From: Escherichia coli
Lineage (GTDB): Bacteria; Pseudomonadota; Gammaproteobacteria; Enterobacterales; Enterobacteriaceae
NCBI RefSeq assembly: GCF_003334255.1
Contig: NZ_QOWU01000026.1
Direction: 5' to 3' (one strand)
DNA: 63,217 bases
Position numbers and translations under genes: made by a program. This document shows, piece by piece, positions 1-33,714 of this stretch (within the stretch, counting starts at the first letter, position 1; each line of letters begins with the position of its first letter). The notes beneath the pieces are model-generated. The model was given only the letters and a program-made list of their open reading frames with translations, was not told where the DNA came from and ran no database searches.

Positions 1-107
1 ACGCGAGGCATCGTCTTAACGAGGCACCGAGGCGTCGCATTCTTCAGATGGTTCAACCCTTAAGTTAGCGCTTATGGGAATTATCCCCGGCTTTTTTATG
101 TATGGTC

Positions 108-1310
108 TTACAGCACCAGTGCTGCGATTGACGCAGACAGCACACTCACCAGGGTAGAGCCGTAAACCAGCTTCAGACCGAAGCGAGAAACCACGTTACC
201 TTGCTCTTCATTCAGGCCTTTAACTGCACCTGCGATAATCCCGATTGAAGAGAAGTTAGCGAAGGAAACCAGGAACACAGAGATGATGCCTTCAGCACGC
301 GGAGAGAGCGTGGAAGCAATTTTCTGCAGATCCATCATCGCAACGAACTCGTTGGAAACCAGTTTGGTCGCCATGATACTGCCCACTTGCAGTGCTTCAC
401 TGGAAGGAACACCCATCACCCATGCAATCGGATAGAAGATGTAGCCCAGGATGCCCTGGAAGGAGATGCTGTAGCCAAACCAGCCAGTAACGGTGGCAAA
501 CAGTGCGTTCAGCGCGGCGATCAGGGCGATAAAGCCAATCAGCATCGCGGCAACGATAATGGCAACTTTGAAACCTGCCAGAATGTATTCACCCAGCATT
601 TCGAAGAAGCTCTGACCTTCGTGCAGGTTGGACATCTGGATGTTTTCTTCACTGGCATCAACACGGTAAGGATTGATCAGCGACAGCACGATAAAGGTGC
701 TGAACATGTTCAGTACCAGCGCAGCAACGACGTATTTCGGTTCCAGCATGGTCATGTATGCACCAACGATGGACATCGACACGGTGGACATTGCCGTGGC
801 AGCCATGGTGTACATACGATTACGGGAGATTTTGCCGAGGATATCTTTATAGGCAATAAAGTTTTCAGACTGACCCAGAATCAGGGAGCTGACGGCGTTA
901 AAGGATTCCAGTTTGCCCATGCCGTTGACTTTGGAGAGCAGGAAACCAATTGCGCGGATGATCACCGGCAACACGCGAATGTGCTGGAGAATACCGATCA
1001 GTGCAGAGATAAAGACGATTGGGCACAGCACTTTCAGGAAGAAGAATGCCAGGCCTTGATCATTCATGCTACCAAAGACGAAGTTAGTCCCTTCGTTGGC
1101 AAATCCGAGCAGTTTTTCGAACATTTCGGAGAAGCCTTTCACGAAGCCTAAACCAACGTCGGAGTTCAGGAAGAACCACGCCAGTAACACTTCGATAACA
1201 AGCAGTTGAATAACATAACGGATACGAATTTTTTTGCGGTCGCTACTTACCAGCAGTGCGAGAATCGCAACAACGGCAAGTGCCAGTACAAAATGAAGGA
1301 CGCGGTCCAT
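108..1310 (-). CDS. nupC: Nucleoside:H+ symporter NupC
   Basis: ORF 108..1349; translation [14 protein letters not shown]... multi-TM, ~400 aa from the MDRV Met; recognisable NupC. Confidence 0.9.
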
Positions 1311-1636
1311 ATTTGCTCCAAATATGAGGCAGGTTAAATTTCCGTGCACATTCTATGTAACATGGTTAAGGAAAACGAGATCTGACACACACTATAATGA
1401 CGTCCTGTGACAGGCTTCAAAAATAGTGATCTGTCATACATTTCTGCTATGTTGTGTATGGAAGCTGAAAGTTATGTAAATGTGCTAACATTAAACATAA
1501 CCATAACATTCAAGTCATCAATCTTTTCGTAGTCATAATCCTGGTCTATCAGAGAAATCACCACAATCCATTTAAATGAATTTGATAATCATTCTCGTTT
1601 GGCATAGCATGAAACATAGCAAAGGCTATGTTTTAG

Positions 1637-2884
<1,248 letters not shown>

Positions 2885-2889
2885 TTGAA

Positions 2890-3000
<111 letters not shown>

Positions 3001-3024
3001 ATTGTGCTCCATTGGCGGACGCGT

Positions 3025-3351
3025 TTAATGGCGGTGCCCATGACCCCGGCCTTTTCCGCGATGATCGTCACGATCGCGCCAGCCTTCACGATAGCCACGC
3101 TCATACGCTTTACGCTTATCCCAGCCACGGTGGTAGCCATTATCATGACGCCACCAACGGTTTTTGCGCCACTCATAATTGCGATGCCAGTAGTCACGGT
3201 CGCGCCAGTGACCACCGTCCCAGTAATTACCGTAATGATCGCGATCGCCAATTTGTAATTTGATTGATGGCAGTAGGGTGATTTCACCTGCGTTTGCTGC
3301 AAGCGGGGTAAATGCCATCAGGGCGGCCGCCAGAAACAGTGACCTGAACAT
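3025..3351 (-). CDS. ypeC: DUF2502 secreted protein YpeC
   Basis: 108 aa ORF with signal peptide [21 protein letters not shown] and His/Arg/Trp-rich tail. Confidence 0.8.
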
Positions 3352-3465
3352 TGTTATTCTCCTTCACGCTCGAAGCCGTCAGCGGCCTGTTAACGCAATA
3401 TTACGGGGAGGTAAAGCCCCGTATCATCGCCATAACTCTTAAATCATAAAGGAGAGCATTTTTTG

Positions 3466-4722
3466 CTAAACGTTATCGTGGGGTGGCTGTTGCTTCGGAC
3501 GATTGACCATCATCATCGGCTTACCTGCTAATAACAGCCATGCCGGAAGCATGACGATACAGAGCAGCGGTAGCAATGTGGTATTGGGTACAACGACTGC
3601 CGCCATAAAAAGACTTAACCAGCCATCGCGTGTTACCACCAGCACGATGCCGAGAATAGCGCAAGAAACGGTTATTGCCGCTGGTACGGCGGGAACGTGC
3701 TCATGCAGCATCAACCCTAATGCCACGCCGACAAACACTGCCGGGAAGATTCGCCCACCGCGAAAGCCACTGGCGGCAGCAACGACCAGGGCGGCAAGTT
3801 TAATTACCGCCAGCAAAAAGTAATCGCTGGTGCTGAAAGCCTGATTTGCCACCATCTGCTGCATCTCATCCAGCCCTTTAAACAGCGAAACTGGTCCACC
3901 AATAACCCCCAGAATACCGAGAATAAATCCGCCAATACCCAGCACGAGCACCGGATTTTTCATTTGATGCATCATCGCGTGCAACCGTGGTAAGCACCAT
4001 ACGGCGACCATCCCTGCTGCGATGGCAATCGCCGCGACAATTGCACCGCTGAGAATATCGGTCATTTCCATCTGTCCGTAATGAGCAATGGGCAGTGAAA
4101 AATGAGGATGGAAAAATAATCCGGTAGTAAGTGCACCAGCTGCTGCCGCCATTAACGGCGCAAAGAGACGATCCCATAGCGGAACTTCACTACTGCCATT
4201 TAAGGTTTGCGAAAATATCAACGCCGCCGCAACAGGAGTGCCAAACAGTGCGCCGATGGTTCCGGCAGAGGCTAAAATAGTCCACTCCATTCGGTTGACG
4301 CGCGGTAACAGACGAGCGCCAATGGCAACCGCAAGGGCGATATTGACGGTCATGATCGGATGTTCCGGCCCCAGGCTGACGCCGCCAGCAAGACCGAGAA
4401 TTAATGCTACGATAAGTCCAGGTAGCGCAGAGGGCGGAACCGGTGCGCCGATCAGCGGTTCACAGGCGGGGTCTGGTCCGGCATGACCCTGGCTGAAACG
4501 GATAACCAACCCCACCGCAATACCCGTTAGCGTTAATACACCGATGATCCAGAGGGGTGAATCCTGGGCTATCCCCAGAGTTCCCGGCAGTCGTTGCCAG
4601 AGCAAATTCTGTAATACCGAGGCGATTTTCATCACCACAATCAGAATAAGACTGGACGCAATCCCAATTGCCACGGCGGGGAGCGATAATAACAACATGG
4701 TTCTGGCTCGCGGATGGAGCAT
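3466..4722 (-). CDS. yfeO: ClC-like ion channel/transporter family membrane protein YfeO
   Basis: 418 aa polytopic ORF; position and sequence match K-12 yfeO between ypeC and glk. Confidence 0.85.
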
Positions 4723-19654: not shown

Positions 19655-19949
19655 AGAAAGTTATCCTGAAAATGGTTCACTGAGAACCTACGATGTTATG
19701 GCTGTATTTACATTTAATTAATCAGTATTTACATCGATATAATAAATGACATCTCTTTGTGGTATATAAGAATAGTTCTCTGCGACAGGAAGCATATTCC
19801 TACAATTGTAAGACTAAAATACTTCTTGCGATAATAACTACAACTGTAAGATAACCCTTTCAAAATGACCGTTGCTCTCTGATTTCTCATTTCATGCTCA
19901 CCCAATATGATGGCGGCGTTTTCTAAAACTGTTAAAGAATGAGGTAAGT

Positions 19950-20676: not shown

Positions 20677-21097
20677 TTATTTGGCGCTCGCGGTGCTATA
20701 AACTCGCATTTTATATTCCTCAAAGTAAACCGCAATAATCCCGTGTCATCACAAATCATTTATTATGTTATGTTTTATGGTACGCTTTAAAAAGCGTAAT
20801 CATACCCTTGCTTGTAAATCACCGGCGCTTCTTACAGTTGTAAGAATAACATCACAAATGTCGCGACTCTCTCTGATTACCACGAATCAATATTTATCAT
20901 ATTCTTCTTTTCGTCCTCACTACTTACCATGCAGAAAGGAATTGGAAGTGGCGATGAAATGATTTTCAGCACTTGATACAGGATTTTAAAAATATCGAGT
21001 GCAGCTACGACGATATTTTGCGGGTTATTTATAGAAGATATTACGCCTTAAATAAACGCTAAATTAACACATATTTAATTAACTAATAGGTATTGCT

Positions 21098-26384: not shown

Positions 26385-29300
26385 TTAGTCATTTTTCTGA
26401 CAGAAAACAGCAATCTCCTGGTCCAGCTCTGCAATGTGTTCTTTTACAGAGTTCAGCAACTGAAGAATTTCAGGCTTACTGTCATCTGAAACAGGTGTTA
26501 TTTCTAACTGATGGCTAATATTAATCAACTTTTGCAAATTCAGGATGTTAGCCGCACCGTGGATGCGATGAATACACTGATGGAAAGTTCTGTTATCGCC
26601 AGCTTCTAGTGCTTGAAACGCAGCGGGTAGATCTTTATGCGTTTCATGCTGGAAAGTCATGAGAATCTCCTGCATCAGTTGTAGATCGTTCGCCGTATTA
26701 TTTTTCAGGGCTTCGATATCAAGGTGGCGATACTGAGGTGCAATATGCGCAACTTGGTGTAACTGACTTAAATGTGTTTTCAGTACATCCAGGGTCAACG
26801 GTTTGAACAAACATAAGTTCATGCCGCAACTTAACCCTTTTTCACGTTCGTTAGCCTGTGCGTTGGCTGTAAGCCCCCAGATGGGTAAGGAAGAATTTTG
26901 CTCACGGAGTTTGCGAGTCAACTCAAAACCATCCATATTCGGCATATTAACGTCAGTAATAAGCAGATCATAATGTTGCATACTGACTTTGTGTAGCGCT
27001 TGCACACCATCAGTGGCTTCATCAACATCATATCCTAATAGATTTAGCTGGCGTTTGAGTAATAGCCTGTTGGTCGGATGATCATCCGCGATTAATATGC
27101 TCAACTTTTCAGGTAGTGTGATGGGTTGTTCTGCTTTTGCCTCGACAGTCGCCACTTGCTGGCTAATTTCTACCGGGATTGTGATCGTAAATGTTGTTCC
27201 TATGCCTGGATGACTTTCTAATGACAAATCGCCCTGCATATTTTTAATTAATTCTTTGCAGATCATTAAGCCTAAACCAGAACCTGTTTGCTGACGACCT
27301 GCACTTGTTTGGCTGTAGCGTTTAAACAGTTGTTGTTGTTCTTCCTGCGATAATCCACTTCCAGAATCCATAATCGTCATTTTGATAACAGCGTGGTTGT
27401 CATCAATGTGACCCAGGGAGGTCGTAATTTTTACTGCCCCCTCGGTGGTAAATTTGAGAGCATTACTCAGTAAATTTGATAAGACCTGCTTAAACGCCTG
27501 AGGGTCGATCTTAACCAGGTAATGTTCAGGAAACGTACTGCTGCAACTTAATGCGATCGATTTGCTTGCAGCAATCGCACCGAAAGAGTGACAAGTGTTC
27601 TGGACTAAAGTAGGGATATCGACCCATTGTGGTTGAAGTTGATAGTTACCCGATTCAATTTTGTCGACATCAAGGATTTCACCAATTAAGCCGAGGAGTG
27701 ATTGTCCGGTGGCGTAGGCAAGTGAAATCGCCTCCACCCGTTGCTCCTTGCTAAGACCAGAACCCGACAGAAGTTCCAGGAAGCCCATAATAGAGCTTAT
27801 TGGTGTTCTTATTTCGTGACTCATCGTTGCCAGAAACTGACTTTTTGCTACGGTAGCCTTTATCGCTTTATTTTTTTCTACCTCGAGTGCATTAATTAGA
27901 TCACGCGTTTCAGTAATATCTTGCCAACCACAAATATATACTGCATTGTCACTTGCAGGAAGATTGCATAATGTATGCCAGTGATTAATGCATCTTTTCT
28001 CGATGCCATTATCAATTTCAAATACCTGTGTGTATATTGTTCGATTTTCTTTCGTTTCTGCTGTGACTTCATGCGCATTAGAAAAAACATCTTTAAAGGG
28101 TGAGTCACTGTTTTCTAATGGTAACATTGCATTTTTGTAGTAATCCGCAGTGAAATAATGTTCAAAAGCACTATTATGACTAATGACATTACCTTGCCAG
28201 TTTACAACATAAGTTGGATTCGGTAAGGAATCCGAGAGTGCTTTTCGGAATGATATTTGGTTTTCTAAATCACCCTGAATGACTTTACGACGACGAACTG
28301 AGCGTAACAGGTAGAATCCCCATAAAAGGCTACTGCCAACTAATAAAACGGATAATGTCGTAACAATATAAAATTGCTCGCTATATAGGTCCCATGTGTC
28401 AATGGTCACATTGGGCATTTTAATCCATTTTTCCGTCAGGCGCAGAACTTCGCTTGGGGGAATTGCATTCAGTGCTTTATTAATAATATCCTTAAGTTCC
28501 GGTTCTCCGCGAGGAAAAGCGAACGAAAGCGATGCATTCGGAACGCCAGGAATAAGAAAATGATAAAGTTCATTAGGATAGTAATGATCGATCATGTAAC
28601 GCGAATTTAGCTGTGTCGCGACCAGAGCATCAAGTTCACCTTCCTTAACCTTGTGAAATGCAGCGCTGGCATTATCGACCTGTATCCATTCAACCTCCGG
28701 ATACATCTCTTTTAATTGCGAATGCAGCTCATAATAATATGGAATGGCAACTTTCATTCCTTTTTTTAATGTTTGTTCACTGTCAGGCGCTTTTTGCATG
28801 ACAAAAACGTAAGGCGTTGTTATGAAGGCTTCAGCAAATAAAACATTATTTTCTCGATCTTCACTATAAATAGCGCCAGGTATTATATCCCATCCTCCGG
28901 GGCTAAGCTGTGTTCCAGCATGGATATTGTGTGAAACGGTGATCGGAGAAAAATTTAAACCTGTTTGCAAGGTAATAATATTAAGAATGTCCCCCATAAC
29001 GCCCCGAACCGAGCCATTTTCATCCGTCATAGAATAGGGGGGCGAGTAAGGATTTTCCAGCACCTTTAAATTGGGATGCTGCTTAATCCACTGTTTTTCA
29101 TGTTCAGTGAGTTCTAATGGTTTGTTCAGAAAGGCCAGGTTTCCTGTATCAAGCCAATTTTGTGATACTTCATAGCGAACTTCATTTGTTAAAGCATCAA
29201 CAAATCTATTGAGTACTTCATTAAGAATGACAGATTCTTTTCTGGTCAAGAAAAAATTATATTGACGCGGCGAGTTATAATATTTCACTACATTTAAGGA

Positions 29301-29978
29301 GTGAGTGAAATAGCGGGAAATCATACTGCTGGTAATGATGTTACTACCAATAAAGTAATCATTGTGCCCAGCTGAGACGGATGCTAATGCCTGATATAAA
29401 TTTGTAAAAGAGATAATTGTTGCTTTTGGAAATGATTGATGAATTACCTCGTCTGGGGGGTAATTTGCTACCCGAGCAATATTTACTGGTTTTGGTGAGG
29501 TAAGCGGTCGCATTGAGTCGTGAAGGGTGGTTACCAGCGCCGGAAAGGTAATTATCAATGGTTTGGTTGCAGCAATGTCATTATTAAGAGGCGGCGAAGT
29601 AACTAAATGTGATAACACTATATCGACTTCACCTTCTGCAAGCGCGTCCATTGCTTTTTGATGATCTGCGTATTCCCGGAGTGTTAATTTGATATTTAAC
29701 GCTCTTTTTAAAAGATTTAAATAATCAGCATTAATACCACGAACCCGTTGCTGCGAATCGGTATGCAACAACGTAGCCGTTTGGGACTTATGTACTGCAA
29801 TCACAAGATTTTTTTTGCTCGCTAACCAACGTAATTCCTTGTTGCTCAGACGTAGTGGATCAAGTGTGACACGGTTGTTACTACTGATGCCACGATATTC
29901 GATGTAATCTTCGTCTGCGAAACTTATGGTCGACCAAAGACCACAACAGAGAAGAAAAATATAGGGTAAAAACTTCAT
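26385..29978 (-). CDS. evgS: Hybrid sensor kinase EvgS
   Basis: 1197 aa ORF: signal peptide, two periplasmic solute-binding-like domains, His kinase, receiver and HPt domains. Confidence 0.93.
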   Translation of the reverse strand: MKFLPYIFLLCCGLWSTISFADEDYIEYRGISSNNRVTLDPLRLSNKELRWLASKKNLVIAVHKSQTATLLHTDSQQRVRGINADYLNLLKRALNIKLTLREYADHQKAMDALAEGEVDIVLSHLVTSPPLNNDIAATKPLIITFPALVTTLHDSMRPLTSPKPVNIARVANYPPDEVIHQSFPKATIISFTNLYQALASVSAGHNDYFIGSNIITSSMISRYFTHSLNVVKYYNSPRQYNFFLTRKESVILNEVLNRFVDALTNEVRYEVSQNWLDTGNLAFLNKPLELTEHEKQWIKQHPNLKVLENPYSPPYSMTDENGSVRGVMGDILNIITLQTGLNFSPITVSHNIHAGTQLSPGGWDIIPGAIYSEDRENNVLFAEAFITTPYVFVMQKAPDSEQTLKKGMKVAIPYYYELHSQLKEMYPEVEWIQVDNASAAFHKVKEGELDALVATQLNSRYMIDHYYPNELYHFLIPGVPNASLSFAFPRGEPELKDIINKALNAIPPSEVLRLTEKWIKMPNVTIDTWDLYSEQFYIVTTLSVLLVGSSLLWGFYLLRSVRRRKVIQGDLENQISFRKALSDSLPNPTYVVNWQGNVISHNSAFEHYFTADYYKNAMLPLENSDSPFKDVFSNAHEVTAETKENRTIYTQVFEIDNGIEKRCINHWHTLCNLPASDNAVYICGWQDITETRDLINALEVEKNKAIKATVAKSQFLATMSHEIRTPISSIMGFLELLSGSGLSKEQRVEAISLAYATGQSLLGLIGEILDVDKIESGNYQLQPQWVDIPTLVQNTCHSFGAIAASKSIALSCSSTFPEHYLVKIDPQAFKQVLSNLLSNALKFTTEGAVKITTSLGHIDDNHAVIKMTIMDSGSGLSQEEQQQLFKRYSQTSAGRQQTGSGLGLMICKELIKNMQGDLSLESHPGIGTTFTITIPVEISQQVATVEAKAEQPITLPEKLSILIADDHPTNRLLLKRQLNLLGYDVDEATDGVQALHKVSMQHYDLLITDVNMPNMDGFELTRKLREQNSSLPIWGLTANAQANEREKGLSCGMNLCLFKPLTLDVLKTHLSQLHQVAHIAPQYRHLDIEALKNNTANDLQLMQEILMTFQHETHKDLPAAFQALEAGDNRTFHQCIHRIHGAANILNLQKLINISHQLEITPVSDDSKPEILQLLNSVKEHIAELDQEIAVFCQKND

Positions 29979-29982
29979 GTGG

Positions 29983-30597
29983 TTAGCCGATTTTGTTACG
30001 TTGTGCGAATGTGTAAAGATCCATCAGTGATTTACATTCTAATTTTTCCATCAGGCGACTTTTATAAGTGCTGACAGTTTTGTTGCTGATGAACATTTTT
30101 TCAGCAATGTCATTATTATCCTTGCCATCAAGAATATACCGCATGACACTAATTTCTTGTTTCGATAAGGAGTCGAGTTTTTGCTGGTCGGACGTTAAAC
30201 TTCCAACAAACCGGTTGAGAGAGAAGGGGAAATAGCAGTAGCCATTTTTTGCAGCTTCAATAGCCGCAATGATATTGTTCATGCCTTCTTTTTTACTCAC
30301 GAAACCATTAGCGCCAGCATCAGCACAATGTTTCCCGTAAAAATGGTCATTTTTAGCGGAGACGATAATAATAATTCCGCTATATTGGCGCTTCCTCAGC
30401 GTTTCTAACACCTGGATACCGTTAACTCCGGGGATATCGACATCAATGATGACGATATCAGGCTTAAGTGTTTCCACCCGCTGAACGGCACTTCCGCCTT
30501 CAGTCAACTCTGCTAAGATTTCAATATCGTTTTTGATCAATAAATTACGAATTGCTGCGATAGCAAGAGGATGGTCATCAATAATTATTGCGTTCAT
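29983..30597 (-). CDS. evgA: Response regulator EvgA (NarL/FixJ family)
   Basis: 204 aa ORF, MNAIIIDDHPLAIAAIRNLL... receiver plus LuxR-type HTH. Confidence 0.93.
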   Translation of the reverse strand: MNAIIIDDHPLAIAAIRNLLIKNDIEILAELTEGGSAVQRVETLKPDIVIIDVDIPGVNGIQVLETLRKRQYSGIIIIVSAKNDHFYGKHCADAGANGFVSKKEGMNNIIAAIEAAKNGYCYFPFSLNRFVGSLTSDQQKLDSLSKQEISVMRYILDGKDNNDIAEKMFISNKTVSTYKSRLMEKLECKSLMDLYTFAQRNKIG

Positions 30598-30813
30598 AGA
30601 TTATTCCCTTTGCAATGAAGCATCTCCCTTCTCCCTGTAGTAATACAGACATAAGGCGTCATCTCATTTTCTCAATAAAAATAAGAAAATCTGAGCTTCC
30701 TTTAAGATAATTCGACAAGTATACCATATAAATAGTCGGCATAAATGAAATGTCAACAATAAAATCAGGGATTGTACCGATGATTTATAGTTTCAAGTTG
30801 GCACTATAAGTCT

Positions 30814-30839
30814 TCTTACTAATCCTACAGGCGTAAGAA
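30814..30839. promoter_or_regulatory. Inverted repeat in evgA-emrK divergent promoter region (EvgA-box-like half sites)
   Basis: TTCTTAC ... GTAAGAA inverted half-sites separated by 12 nt in the divergent intergenic region. Confidence 0.35.
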
Positions 30840-31012
30840 TTGTATTGCAAAAGCCACGGTTTAGTCCTCTGTTGTTTTTTTTGCACCTTATTTAAATTAG
30901 GCCTCCAACGTTCCTGGGATAATGTGCAACACATGCACTGTGTTTGATATGAAGAATGAATGCTCTTTTCATTCAATTCATAAATTTCATCTATGAGAAA
31001 TGAGAGATAATA

Positions 31013-32176
31013 GTGGAACAGATTAATTCAAATAAAAAACATTCTAACAGAAGAAAATACTTTTCTTTATTGGCGGTAGTTTTATTTATTGCGTTTTCAG
31101 GTGCCTATGCCTATTGGTCAATGGAATTAGAAGACATGATTAGTACAGATGACGCCTATGTCACGGGGAATGCAGATCCAATTTCTGCACAAGTCTCAGG
31201 TAGTGTCACTGTCGTTAATCATAAAGATACGAACTACGTTCGACAAGGTGACATTTTAGTTTCACTGGATAAAACTGATGCCACTATCGCACTCAATAAA
31301 GCTAAAAATAATCTGGCAAATATTGTTCGGCAAACGAATAAACTATACTTACAGGATAAACAATACAGTGCCGAAGTCGCTTCAGCACGTATTCAGTATC
31401 AACAATCTTTAGAAGATTATAACCGTCGAGTGCCGTTAGCGAAGCAGGGGGTTATTTCAAAAGAAACGCTGGAGCATACCAAAGATACGTTAATAAGTAG
31501 CAAAGCGGCATTGAATGCCGCTATCCAGGCTTATAAAGCGAATAAAGCTTTAGTAATGAACACACCATTAAACCGTCAGCCACAAGTCGTTGAAGCGGCG
31601 GATGCAACTAAAGAAGCCTGGTTGGCGCTTAAACGTACGGATATTAAGAGTCCGGTTACCGGCTATATTGCCCAGAGAAGTGTTCAGGTCGGCGAAACAG
31701 TGAGCCCCGGACAATCGTTAATGGCTGTCGTACCGGCACGTCAAATGTGGGTTAATGCCAACTTTAAAGAAACACAACTCACGGATGTACGGATTGGTCA
31801 ATCGGTCAATATTATCAGCGATCTTTATGGTGAAAATGTTGTGTTTCATGGTCGGGTGACAGGGATCAATATGGGAACCGGCAATGCGTTCTCCTTATTA
31901 CCTGCACAAAATGCGACAGGGAACTGGATCAAAATCGTTCAGCGTGTACCGGTTGAAGTTTCTCTTGATCCAAAAGAACTCATGGAACACCCCTTGCGTA
32001 TTGGTTTATCGATGACAGCAACTATTGATACGAAGAACGAAGACATTGCCGAGATGCCTGAGCTGGCTTCAACCGTGACCTCCATGCCGGCTTATACCAG
32101 TAAGGCTTTAGTTATCGATACCAGTCCGATAGAAAAAGAAATTAGCAACATTATTTCGCATAATGGACAACTTTAA
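31013..32176 (+). CDS. emrK: Multidrug efflux membrane fusion protein EmrK
   Basis: 387 aa ORF, HlyD-type periplasmic adaptor with single N-terminal TM. Confidence 0.9.
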   Translation: MEQINSNKKHSNRRKYFSLLAVVLFIAFSGAYAYWSMELEDMISTDDAYVTGNADPISAQVSGSVTVVNHKDTNYVRQGDILVSLDKTDATIALNKAKNNLANIVRQTNKLYLQDKQYSAEVASARIQYQQSLEDYNRRVPLAKQGVISKETLEHTKDTLISSKAALNAAIQAYKANKALVMNTPLNRQPQVVEAADATKEAWLALKRTDIKSPVTGYIAQRSVQVGETVSPGQSLMAVVPARQMWVNANFKETQLTDVRIGQSVNIISDLYGENVVFHGRVTGINMGTGNAFSLLPAQNATGNWIKIVQRVPVEVSLDPKELMEHPLRIGLSMTATIDTKNEDIAEMPELASTVTSMPAYTSKALVIDTSPIEKEISNIISHNGQL

Positions 32177-33714
32177 TGGCAATCACTAAATCAACTCCGG
32201 CACCATTAACCGGTGGGACGTTATGGTGCGTCACTATTGCATTGTCATTAGCGACATTTATGCAAATGTTGGATTCCACTATTTCTAACGTCGCAATACC
32301 GACAATATCTGGCTTTCTGGGAGCATCAACAGACGAAGGCACCTGGGTTATCACCTCGTTTGGTGTAGCAAATGCCATTGCGATCCCTGTTACTGGCAGG
32401 TTGGCACAAAGAATAGGCGAATTAAGATTATTTTTACTTTCAGTCACTTTTTTTTCGCTGTCTTCATTAATGTGTAGCCTATCGACCAATCTTGATGTGC
32501 TGATATTTTTTAGAGTCGTTCAGGGGTTAATGGCGGGGCCGTTAATTCCACTGTCACAGAGTTTATTATTAAGGAATTATCCGCCAGAAAAAAGAACATT
32601 TGCTCTGGCATTATGGTCAATGACCGTGATTATCGCTCCGATATGTGGGCCGATATTGGGCGGTTATATTTGTGATAACTTTAGCTGGGGTTGGATATTT
32701 TTAATCAATGTCCCTATGGGGATTATCGTCCTGACATTATGCTTAACCTTACTTAAAGGAAGAGAAACTGAGACTTCACCGGTCAAAATGAATCTACCAG
32801 GACTGACCCTGTTAGTGCTCGGTGTTGGTGGCTTGCAAATTATGCTTGATAAAGGGCGCGATCTGGATTGGTTCAACTCGAGTACAATAATAATATTAAC
32901 AGTAGTATCAGTTATTTCTCTGATCTCTTTAGTCATTTGGGAGTCGACCTCAGAGAACCCGATTCTTGATCTCAGTTTGTTTAAGTCCCGTAACTTCACC
33001 ATTGGTATTGTGAGTATCACATGCGCGTATTTATTTTACTCTGGAGCGATCGTCCTTATGCCGCAGTTACTCCAGGAAACGATGGGGTATAATGCGATAT
33101 GGGCCGGACTTGCTTATGCGCCCATCGGCATCATGCCACTATTAATTTCACCTTTGATAGGACGTTATGGCAACAAAATAGACATGCGGTTGTTAGTGAC
33201 ATTTAGTTTTTTGATGTATGCGGTTTGCTATTACTGGCGTTCTGTGACATTTATGCCAACGATTGATTTTACAGGCATCATTTTGCCGCAGTTTTTTCAG
33301 GGATTCGCCGTTGCCTGTTTCTTTTTACCCTTAACAACGATTTCGTTTTCAGGCTTGCCAGATAATAAATTTGCCAATGCCTCGAGTATGAGTAATTTTT
33401 TTCGTACCTTGTCAGGATCAGTTGGTACGTCGTTGACAATGACGCTGTGGGGACGACGCGAATCGTTACACCATAGTCAGTTGACAGCAACCATCGATCA
33501 ATTTAACCCCGTGTTTAATTCATCGTCACAAATTATGGATAAATATTATGGTTCGCTTTCAGGAGTTCTTAATGAAATTAATAATGAAATAACCCAGCAG
33601 TCACTTTCTATTTCTGCAAATGAGATTTTCCGTATGGCGGCTATTGCTTTTATCTTACTTACGGTTTTGGTTTGGTTTGCGAAACCGCCGTTTACAGCGA
33701 AAGGCGTTGGGTGA
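32176..33714 (+). CDS. emrY: MFS multidrug efflux pump EmrY
   Basis: 512 aa 14-TM MFS ORF, start overlaps emrK stop. Confidence 0.9.
   Translation: MAITKSTPAPLTGGTLWCVTIALSLATFMQMLDSTISNVAIPTISGFLGASTDEGTWVITSFGVANAIAIPVTGRLAQRIGELRLFLLSVTFFSLSSLMCSLSTNLDVLIFFRVVQGLMAGPLIPLSQSLLLRNYPPEKRTFALALWSMTVIIAPICGPILGGYICDNFSWGWIFLINVPMGIIVLTLCLTLLKGRETETSPVKMNLPGLTLLVLGVGGLQIMLDKGRDLDWFNSSTIIILTVVSVISLISLVIWESTSENPILDLSLFKSRNFTIGIVSITCAYLFYSGAIVLMPQLLQETMGYNAIWAGLAYAPIGIMPLLISPLIGRYGNKIDMRLLVTFSFLMYAVCYYWRSVTFMPTIDFTGIILPQFFQGFAVACFFLPLTTISFSGLPDNKFANASSMSNFFRTLSGSVGTSLTMTLWGRRESLHHSQLTATIDQFNPVFNSSSQIMDKYYGSLSGVLNEINNEITQQSLSISANEIFRMAAIAFILLTVLVWFAKPPFTAKGVG

Follow-up and report, generated by a model that had tools for sequence, protein, structure and literature searches.

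The 27-bp stretch between evgA and emrK that attracted attention as a widely spaced inverted repeat very probably holds the canonical EvgA operator of the emrKY and evgAS operons, at positions 30822-30839 of the window, the 63,217-nt stretch of DNA analysed here. As far as the sequence allows us to say, a dimer of phosphorylated EvgA, a regulator of acid and drug responses, would activate emrKY, and probably evgAS, from this site. The emrKY/evgAS control region was already known to have this EvgA box, with the inverted arms ATCCTACA and CGTAAGAA separated by 2 nt, and the spacing appeared odd because the wrong two half-sites had been paired. The non-canonical spacing is an artefact of this pairing, and therefore no new mode of EvgA binding is implied. 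The presence, register, enrichment, sharing and conservation of the box were computed here, and EvgA binding and promoter geometry are drawn from the literature or by inference.

Results

The window is a piece of the E. coli chromosome in reversed orientation relative to K-12 MG1655, and both the ORFs and the K-12 annotation place the element in the divergent control region between evgA and emrK, as the initial annotation had stated (Table 1). The identity of the flanking coding sequences was also taken from the RefSeq annotation of eight genomes. The evgA ORF (204 aa) matches the NCBIfam EvgA equivalog with 437.9 bits against a cut-off of 251 and is also similar, more weakly as expected, to NarL, FimZ, UhpA and FixJ; the 387-aa emrK ORF is an EmrA/EmrK-family adaptor (NCBIfam match, 487 bits). 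Alignment to the K-12 promoter region, which had been proposed as a check, gave 414/415 identity to MG1655 over the evgA-emrK spacer (415 bp, 30598-31012), and the studied element is identical; the box at 30822-30839 corresponds to K-12 2483513-2483530. This spacer was found in 5399 of 5426 complete E. coli genomes; a 100% match is absent from these 5426 genomes, the best being 99.8%, and the T at 30889 is private to the window, with C in K-12 and all sampled strains. About 20 matches to the chromosomal spacer fall on plasmid-labelled records.

Table 1. Positions of the genes, EvgA boxes and neighbouring elements in the window.
Feature	Position	Strand	Description
evgS	26385-29978	-	ORF, K-12 annotation; divergent operon evgAS
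evgA	29983-30597	-	ORF, K-12 annotation; divergent operon evgAS, encodes the regulator
Annotated evgA promoter	30721-30756	-	-35 TTGACA at 30756-30751; 5'UTR start at 30721
Extra half-site-like element TTCTTACT	30813-30820	+	7/8 of consensus; direct repeat 9 bp upstream of the left arm of the box
EvgA box	30822-30839	.	ATCCTACA-GG-CGTAAGAA, 8-2-8 layout; pattern search
Conserved block TTGTATTGCAAAAG	30840-30853	+	Abuts the box on the emrK side
Fixed-offset block AGTCCTCTGTT	30863-30873	+	24-34 nt after the box; candidate emrK -10
emrK	31013-32176	+	ORF, K-12 annotation; regulated efflux operon emrKY
emrY	32176-33714	+	ORF, K-12 annotation; regulated efflux operon emrKY
EvgA box upstream of yfdX	19797-19814	.	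1 mismatch; internal comparison
Second EvgA box upstream of yfdX	19835-19852	.	3 mismatches; internal comparison
EvgA box upstream of frc (yfdW)	20829-20846	.	Perfect, TTCTTACAGTTGTAAGAA; internal comparison

The EvgA-box consensus, which we take to be TTCYTACA-N2-TGTARGAA, is corroborated here by its recurrence upstream of known targets. In a pattern search with TTCYTACANNTGTARGAA, the box ATCCTACAGGCGTAAGAA matched 14 of the 16 specified positions. Its two inverted 8-nt arms, 30822-30829 and 30832-30839, stand at exactly 2 nt from each other, and the core TCCTAC-N4-GTAAGA is intact (consensus core TCYTAC-N4-GTARGA). The two mismatches, A for T at position 1 and C for T at position 11, lie at an outer or inner edge of the arms and are fixed in every sampled E. 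coli. Boxes with at most two mismatches occur three times in the 63-kb window against 0.047 expected per shuffled window, and all three sit upstream of EvgA-regulated genes; the motif recurs at other direct targets and is rare elsewhere. The two yfdX boxes are spaced 38 bp apart, and in K-12 the boxes of safA, ydeP and yegR have one, two and one mismatches, respectively. Neither the consensus string nor the site sequence was found in the full-text literature searched.

Two further tests place the register of the box. When the best identities of each spacer 18-mer to the upstream regions of yfdX, frc, safA, ydeP and yegR were added up and the 18-mers ranked accordingly, the peaks fell at starts 30823, 30824 and 30822, with sums of 70, 68 and 68 (mean 56.3, sd 2.9). 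A position weight matrix built solely from the other five boxes, leaving out the one at 30822-30839, gave this site a score of 18.1, the third highest in the window after two of the matrix's own training sites; the secondary yfdX box scored 13.5, the best unrelated match in the window 8.3, and all shifted registers within 30804-30831 fell below zero.

Conservation was followed across the window/K-12 haplotype, eight additional spacer haplotypes of E. coli (87.7-98.8% identical over 81 bp) and two outgroup loci: L002 (NZ_JAATUR010000016.1, divergent 'E. coli' SCPM-O-B-8794, box at 1260-1277) and L003 (NZ_CACVAF010000001.1, 1-3612, labelled Yersinia vastinensis). The box is conserved relative to its flanks in these orthologous control regions. 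Among the nine E. coli haplotypes, 52 of the 415 spacer positions are polymorphic, compared with one of the 18 box positions, the spacer base 30830; the arms are invariant. The L002 box is the perfect consensus TTCCTACAGGTGTAAGAA, identical to the E. coli box at 16 of 18 positions and differing from it twice, both times toward the consensus, and the L003 box has one mismatch to the consensus and 14/18 identity to the E. coli box, against 65% across the whole spacer. The block TTGTATTGCAAAAG next to the box has no polymorphic site in the nine haplotypes and is identical at 11 of 14 positions in L002 and at 13 of 14 in L003. The loci of evgA homologues in Hafnia, Klebsiella, Enterobacter and Buttiauxella (66-71% identity) contained no alignable operator.

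Since the 81-bp L002 haplotype had no megablast match among complete E. coli genomes, this locus was treated solely as an outgroup; the strain probably represents a cryptic Escherichia lineage. The emrK, evgA and evgS orthologues of L003 share 84%, 94% and 85% amino-acid identity with those of E. coli, and the EvgA box is kept; the locus either entered Yersinia by horizontal transfer or comes from an assembly that is mislabelled or contaminated. A 398-bp contig of Rhizobium cauense carries a fragment 100% identical to residues 1-114 of E. coli EvgA, which is almost certainly assembly contamination.

The left arm of the repeat first noticed, TTCTTAC, belongs to the half-site-like TTCTTACT and is not similarly conserved. 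This 7-mer reads TTCTCAC or TTCTCAT in eight of the nine E. coli haplotypes and likewise in the two outgroups. The T at 30817 is confined to the window/K-12-type haplotype, these eight haplotypes and the outgroups all having C, and 30819 is T in F1053, L002 and L003. From the distribution of these alleles across haplotypes and outgroups we deduce an ancestral left arm TTCTCAT, matching five of the eight half-site positions. The exact K-12-type 51-mer (30803-30853) occurs in 2538 of 4892 matching records, about half of the complete genomes, and the perfect arm is therefore a common derived allele rather than a conserved feature. A flanking half-site of 7/8 is present neither beside the five other E. 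coli boxes nor in L002 or L003. Extra half-sites as a feature of the EvgA-box family were ruled out by these five boxes, which lack them. The TTCTTAC arm is probably dispensable, making at most a weak auxiliary contact.

Next to this element lies the palindrome TTATAGT-N11-ACTATAA (30785-30809). E. coli and L002 show no variation in its arms, and polymorphism in the region is highest in the 11 nt between them; the palindrome could represent a pair of -10 elements arranged back to back (TATAGT on either strand) or the site of another regulator.

The derived arm raises the question of whether the operator is composite, with the K-12-type TTCTTACT cooperatively recruiting an additional EvgA protomer or dimer and thereby tuning emrKY or evgAS. 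By analogy with the isolated heptamers used by NarL and the secondary sites of BvgA such an arrangement can be imagined, and several observations would fit it: within 20 nt of a box, chance would supply about 0.05 half-sites of 7/8 or better (6.7e-4 per position and strand); two consensus positions present in L002 have been lost from the E. coli box, and two (30819 and 30817) gained in the flank; and TTCTTACT has the box on one side and a possible evgA-side promoter (TATAAA, 30789-30784) on the other. However, the extra arm stands at 6/8 in most E. coli and at 5/8 in the outgroups, which are chance levels (the 6/8 state is expected about 0.6 times per flank pair), none of the five other boxes has such a neighbour, TATAAA is a bare hexamer match, and the proposal depends on a single derived SNP (30817). 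We therefore regard a three-half-site operator as unlikely. A narrower version, in which a third core, TCTTAC, created 1 nt from the box by the derived C-to-T change at 30817, acts as a common cis-regulatory polymorphism that would recruit extra EvgA and give lineage-specific emrKY/evgAS output, is decidedly unlikely. If it were true, emrKY induction or evgAS feedback would differ by lineage, adding to the known natural variation in EvgS. As a by-product, the polymorphic flanking half-site divides E. coli roughly in half and may be useful for work on natural variation.

The observation that led to this analysis was partly confirmed, and its interpretation in terms of EvgA half-sites is partly supported. 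Both 7-mers do resemble EvgA half-sites, and the right arm GTAAGAA (30833-30839) is perfectly complementary to TTCTTAC. The latter occupies 30813-30819, so the start given as 30814 was one base late, and the gap is 13 nt (30820-30832, TAATCCTACAGGC) instead of 12. The central claim, a spacing that departs from the canonical 2 nt, is a mis-pairing, as the canonical partner ATCCTACA lies inside the supposed gap.

That the widely spaced pair itself forms an unusual emrK operator is highly improbable. The two 7-mers are perfectly complementary and each fits the half-site core, but the right arm has its canonical partner 2 nt away, and the left 7-mer is altered in the eight other haplotypes and the outgroups, whereas the canonical box is kept everywhere; the two arms are not conserved as a pair. 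At the other EvgA-target promoters examined, no 13-nt-spaced pair was seen, and all have a 2-nt-spaced box. Inverted 7-mers at such a range are also expected by chance: there are four perfect 7-nt inverted repeats in the AT-rich 415-bp spacer when arms up to 20 nt apart are counted, and dinucleotide shuffles contain a mean of 1.0, with at least one in 53% of shuffles. TTCTTAC-N13-GTAAGAA as an exact pattern was found a single time in the window and never in 100 shuffles. Simply as an inverted repeat, TTCTTAC/GTAAGAA is unremarkable; it is by fitting the EvgA consensus in the canonical register that the element exceeds chance. A role as a DNA cruciform, or as an RNA hairpin in a transcript crossing the spacer, is scarcely credible: a 7-bp stem can be drawn, but its predicted stability is weak and on neither strand better than that of shuffles (plus strand -5.0 kcal/mol, z -0.95; minus strand -6.2 kcal/mol, z -1.39), the best fold of the minus strand uses the canonical box arms, one arm is unconserved without compensatory change, there is no Rfam match, and evgA has its annotated start downstream of the site. 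A stable hairpin, intrinsic terminator or structured RNA was rejected on folding z-scores, Rfam and covariation.

On the emrK side, a block at offsets 24-34 after the box is common to six box-anchored, gene-oriented EvgA-dependent promoters, those of emrK, safA, ydeP, yegR, frc and yfdX. It reads AGTCCTCTGTT at emrK, A[GA]TC[CT]TATT at safA, ydeP and yegR, and TCTCTGATT at frc and the second yfdX box, and the six promoters also share CA at offsets 9-10. The summed identity reaches a maximum of 89, whereas the 2000 circular-shift controls averaged 48.8 and did not exceed 71, which points to a shared promoter layout or an additional contact. The block, found at 30863-30873, 19876-19886 and 20870-20880 with equivalents in L090 and L091, contains the half-site core TCYTA. 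For the dissection of EvgA promoters, this block, which keeps its distance to the box in all six, may be a useful by-product.

A -35-like hexamer, TTGCAA, lies at 30846-30851 inside TTGTATTGCAAAAG, for which a promoter role is conceivable. If the offset block is the -10 element, the centre of the box would lie near -50 and the box would abut this weak -35 in emrK, which would plausibly suit an activator making contact with RNA polymerase. A promoter consensus scan returned one unconvincing site, and a relaxed scan returned many -10-like hexamers in the AT-rich spacer; because these scans singled out no promoter, the geometry of the emrK and evgA promoters is one that we infer. An alternative extended -10, TGgGATAAT at 30915-30923, would place the box near -100. 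Directly after it comes GTGCAacacaTGCAC, a hairpin resembling a terminator, with a T-rich tail (30924-30947); this would fall inside the emrK leader. From genomic SELEX, PMC3946193 gives TTGATA-17-TTTCAT as the predicted emrK promoter, with H-NS flagged, and lists the evgA promoter as TTGACA-19-TATATG.

According to the supplement of PMC11052181, the evgA 5'UTR begins with TACTTGTCG, which maps to position 30721 on the minus strand. The box centre is about 110 bp upstream of this annotated start, a distance at which direct autoregulation of evgAS from 30822-30839 is no more than plausible as a reading of the sequence. Within the evgA 5'UTR, the conserved palindrome CTGTA-GTAA-TACAG (30635-30648, minus-strand transcript) lies directly upstream of the Shine-Dalgarno region of the 9-codon evgL ORF (30623-30594). 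It may form a small leader hairpin near the CsrA-binding GGA motifs reported in PMC11052181.

Discussion

Based on the box and its surroundings, we propose the following hypothetical sequence of events, in which (i) a phosphorylated EvgA dimer would bind the two inverted arms at 30822-30829 and 30832-30839; (ii) the bound EvgA~P would activate transcription of emrKY from a promoter about 40 nt downstream of the box, with the box centre near -50; and (iii) the bound EvgA~P would probably feed back on evgAS. Published work is consistent with the first of these steps. An EvgA binding site has been attributed to all directly regulated genes, emrKY included (PMC4283999), and EvgA binds inverted repeats drawn upstream of yfdX and yfdWUVE (PMC3720670). 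PMC9496106 describes EvgA as a NarL-family response regulator and, with reference to Kato 2000, as a direct regulator of emrKY that binds its promoter region, and PMC5706723 likewise lists emrKY as directly EvgA-regulated. The site would be the expected EvgA operator, linking the EmrKY efflux pump to the acid and envelope sensing of EvgS/EvgA. Its importance beyond a correct annotation is small, and the useful outcome is the correction of the spacing.

The EvgA box of the EvgS/EvgA regulon is said to go back to work by Masuda & Church (2002/2003) and Itou et al. (2009). It is an 18-bp inverted repeat, and the regulon members that carry it are ydeP, safA-ydeO, yegR, yfdX, frc and emrKY. The box studied here agrees with these in arm sequence, inverted orientation, 2-nt spacer, length of 18 bp, position upstream of an EvgA-activated operon and fixed distance to a downstream conserved block. 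Nothing essential differs, and its two mismatches are as many as those of the ydeP box. What sets the emrK box apart is its position between two divergent operons, evgAS and emrKY, and the extra flanking half-site-like 8-mer, which is confined to K-12-type strains.

NarL binds '7-2-7' heptamer pairs with the arm TACYYMT, and additional isolated heptamers are common at NarL promoters. EvgA belongs to the NarL family and its box likewise consists of two short inverted arms 2 bp apart, but the arm sequence differs, and the extra half-site at emrK is lineage-specific and putative. BvgA sites at Bordetella vir promoters consist of inverted heptads such as TTTCCTA together with lower-affinity secondary sites toward the -35 region. 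BvgA, the closest characterised homologue of EvgA (PMC9496106), shares a related half-site core, TTCCTA, and its primary inverted repeat with weaker neighbours is the template for the three-half-site alternative. In contrast to BvgA, for which cooperative oligomerisation along the DNA is documented, the EvgA site at emrK is known here from sequence, which supports the 18-bp box alone.
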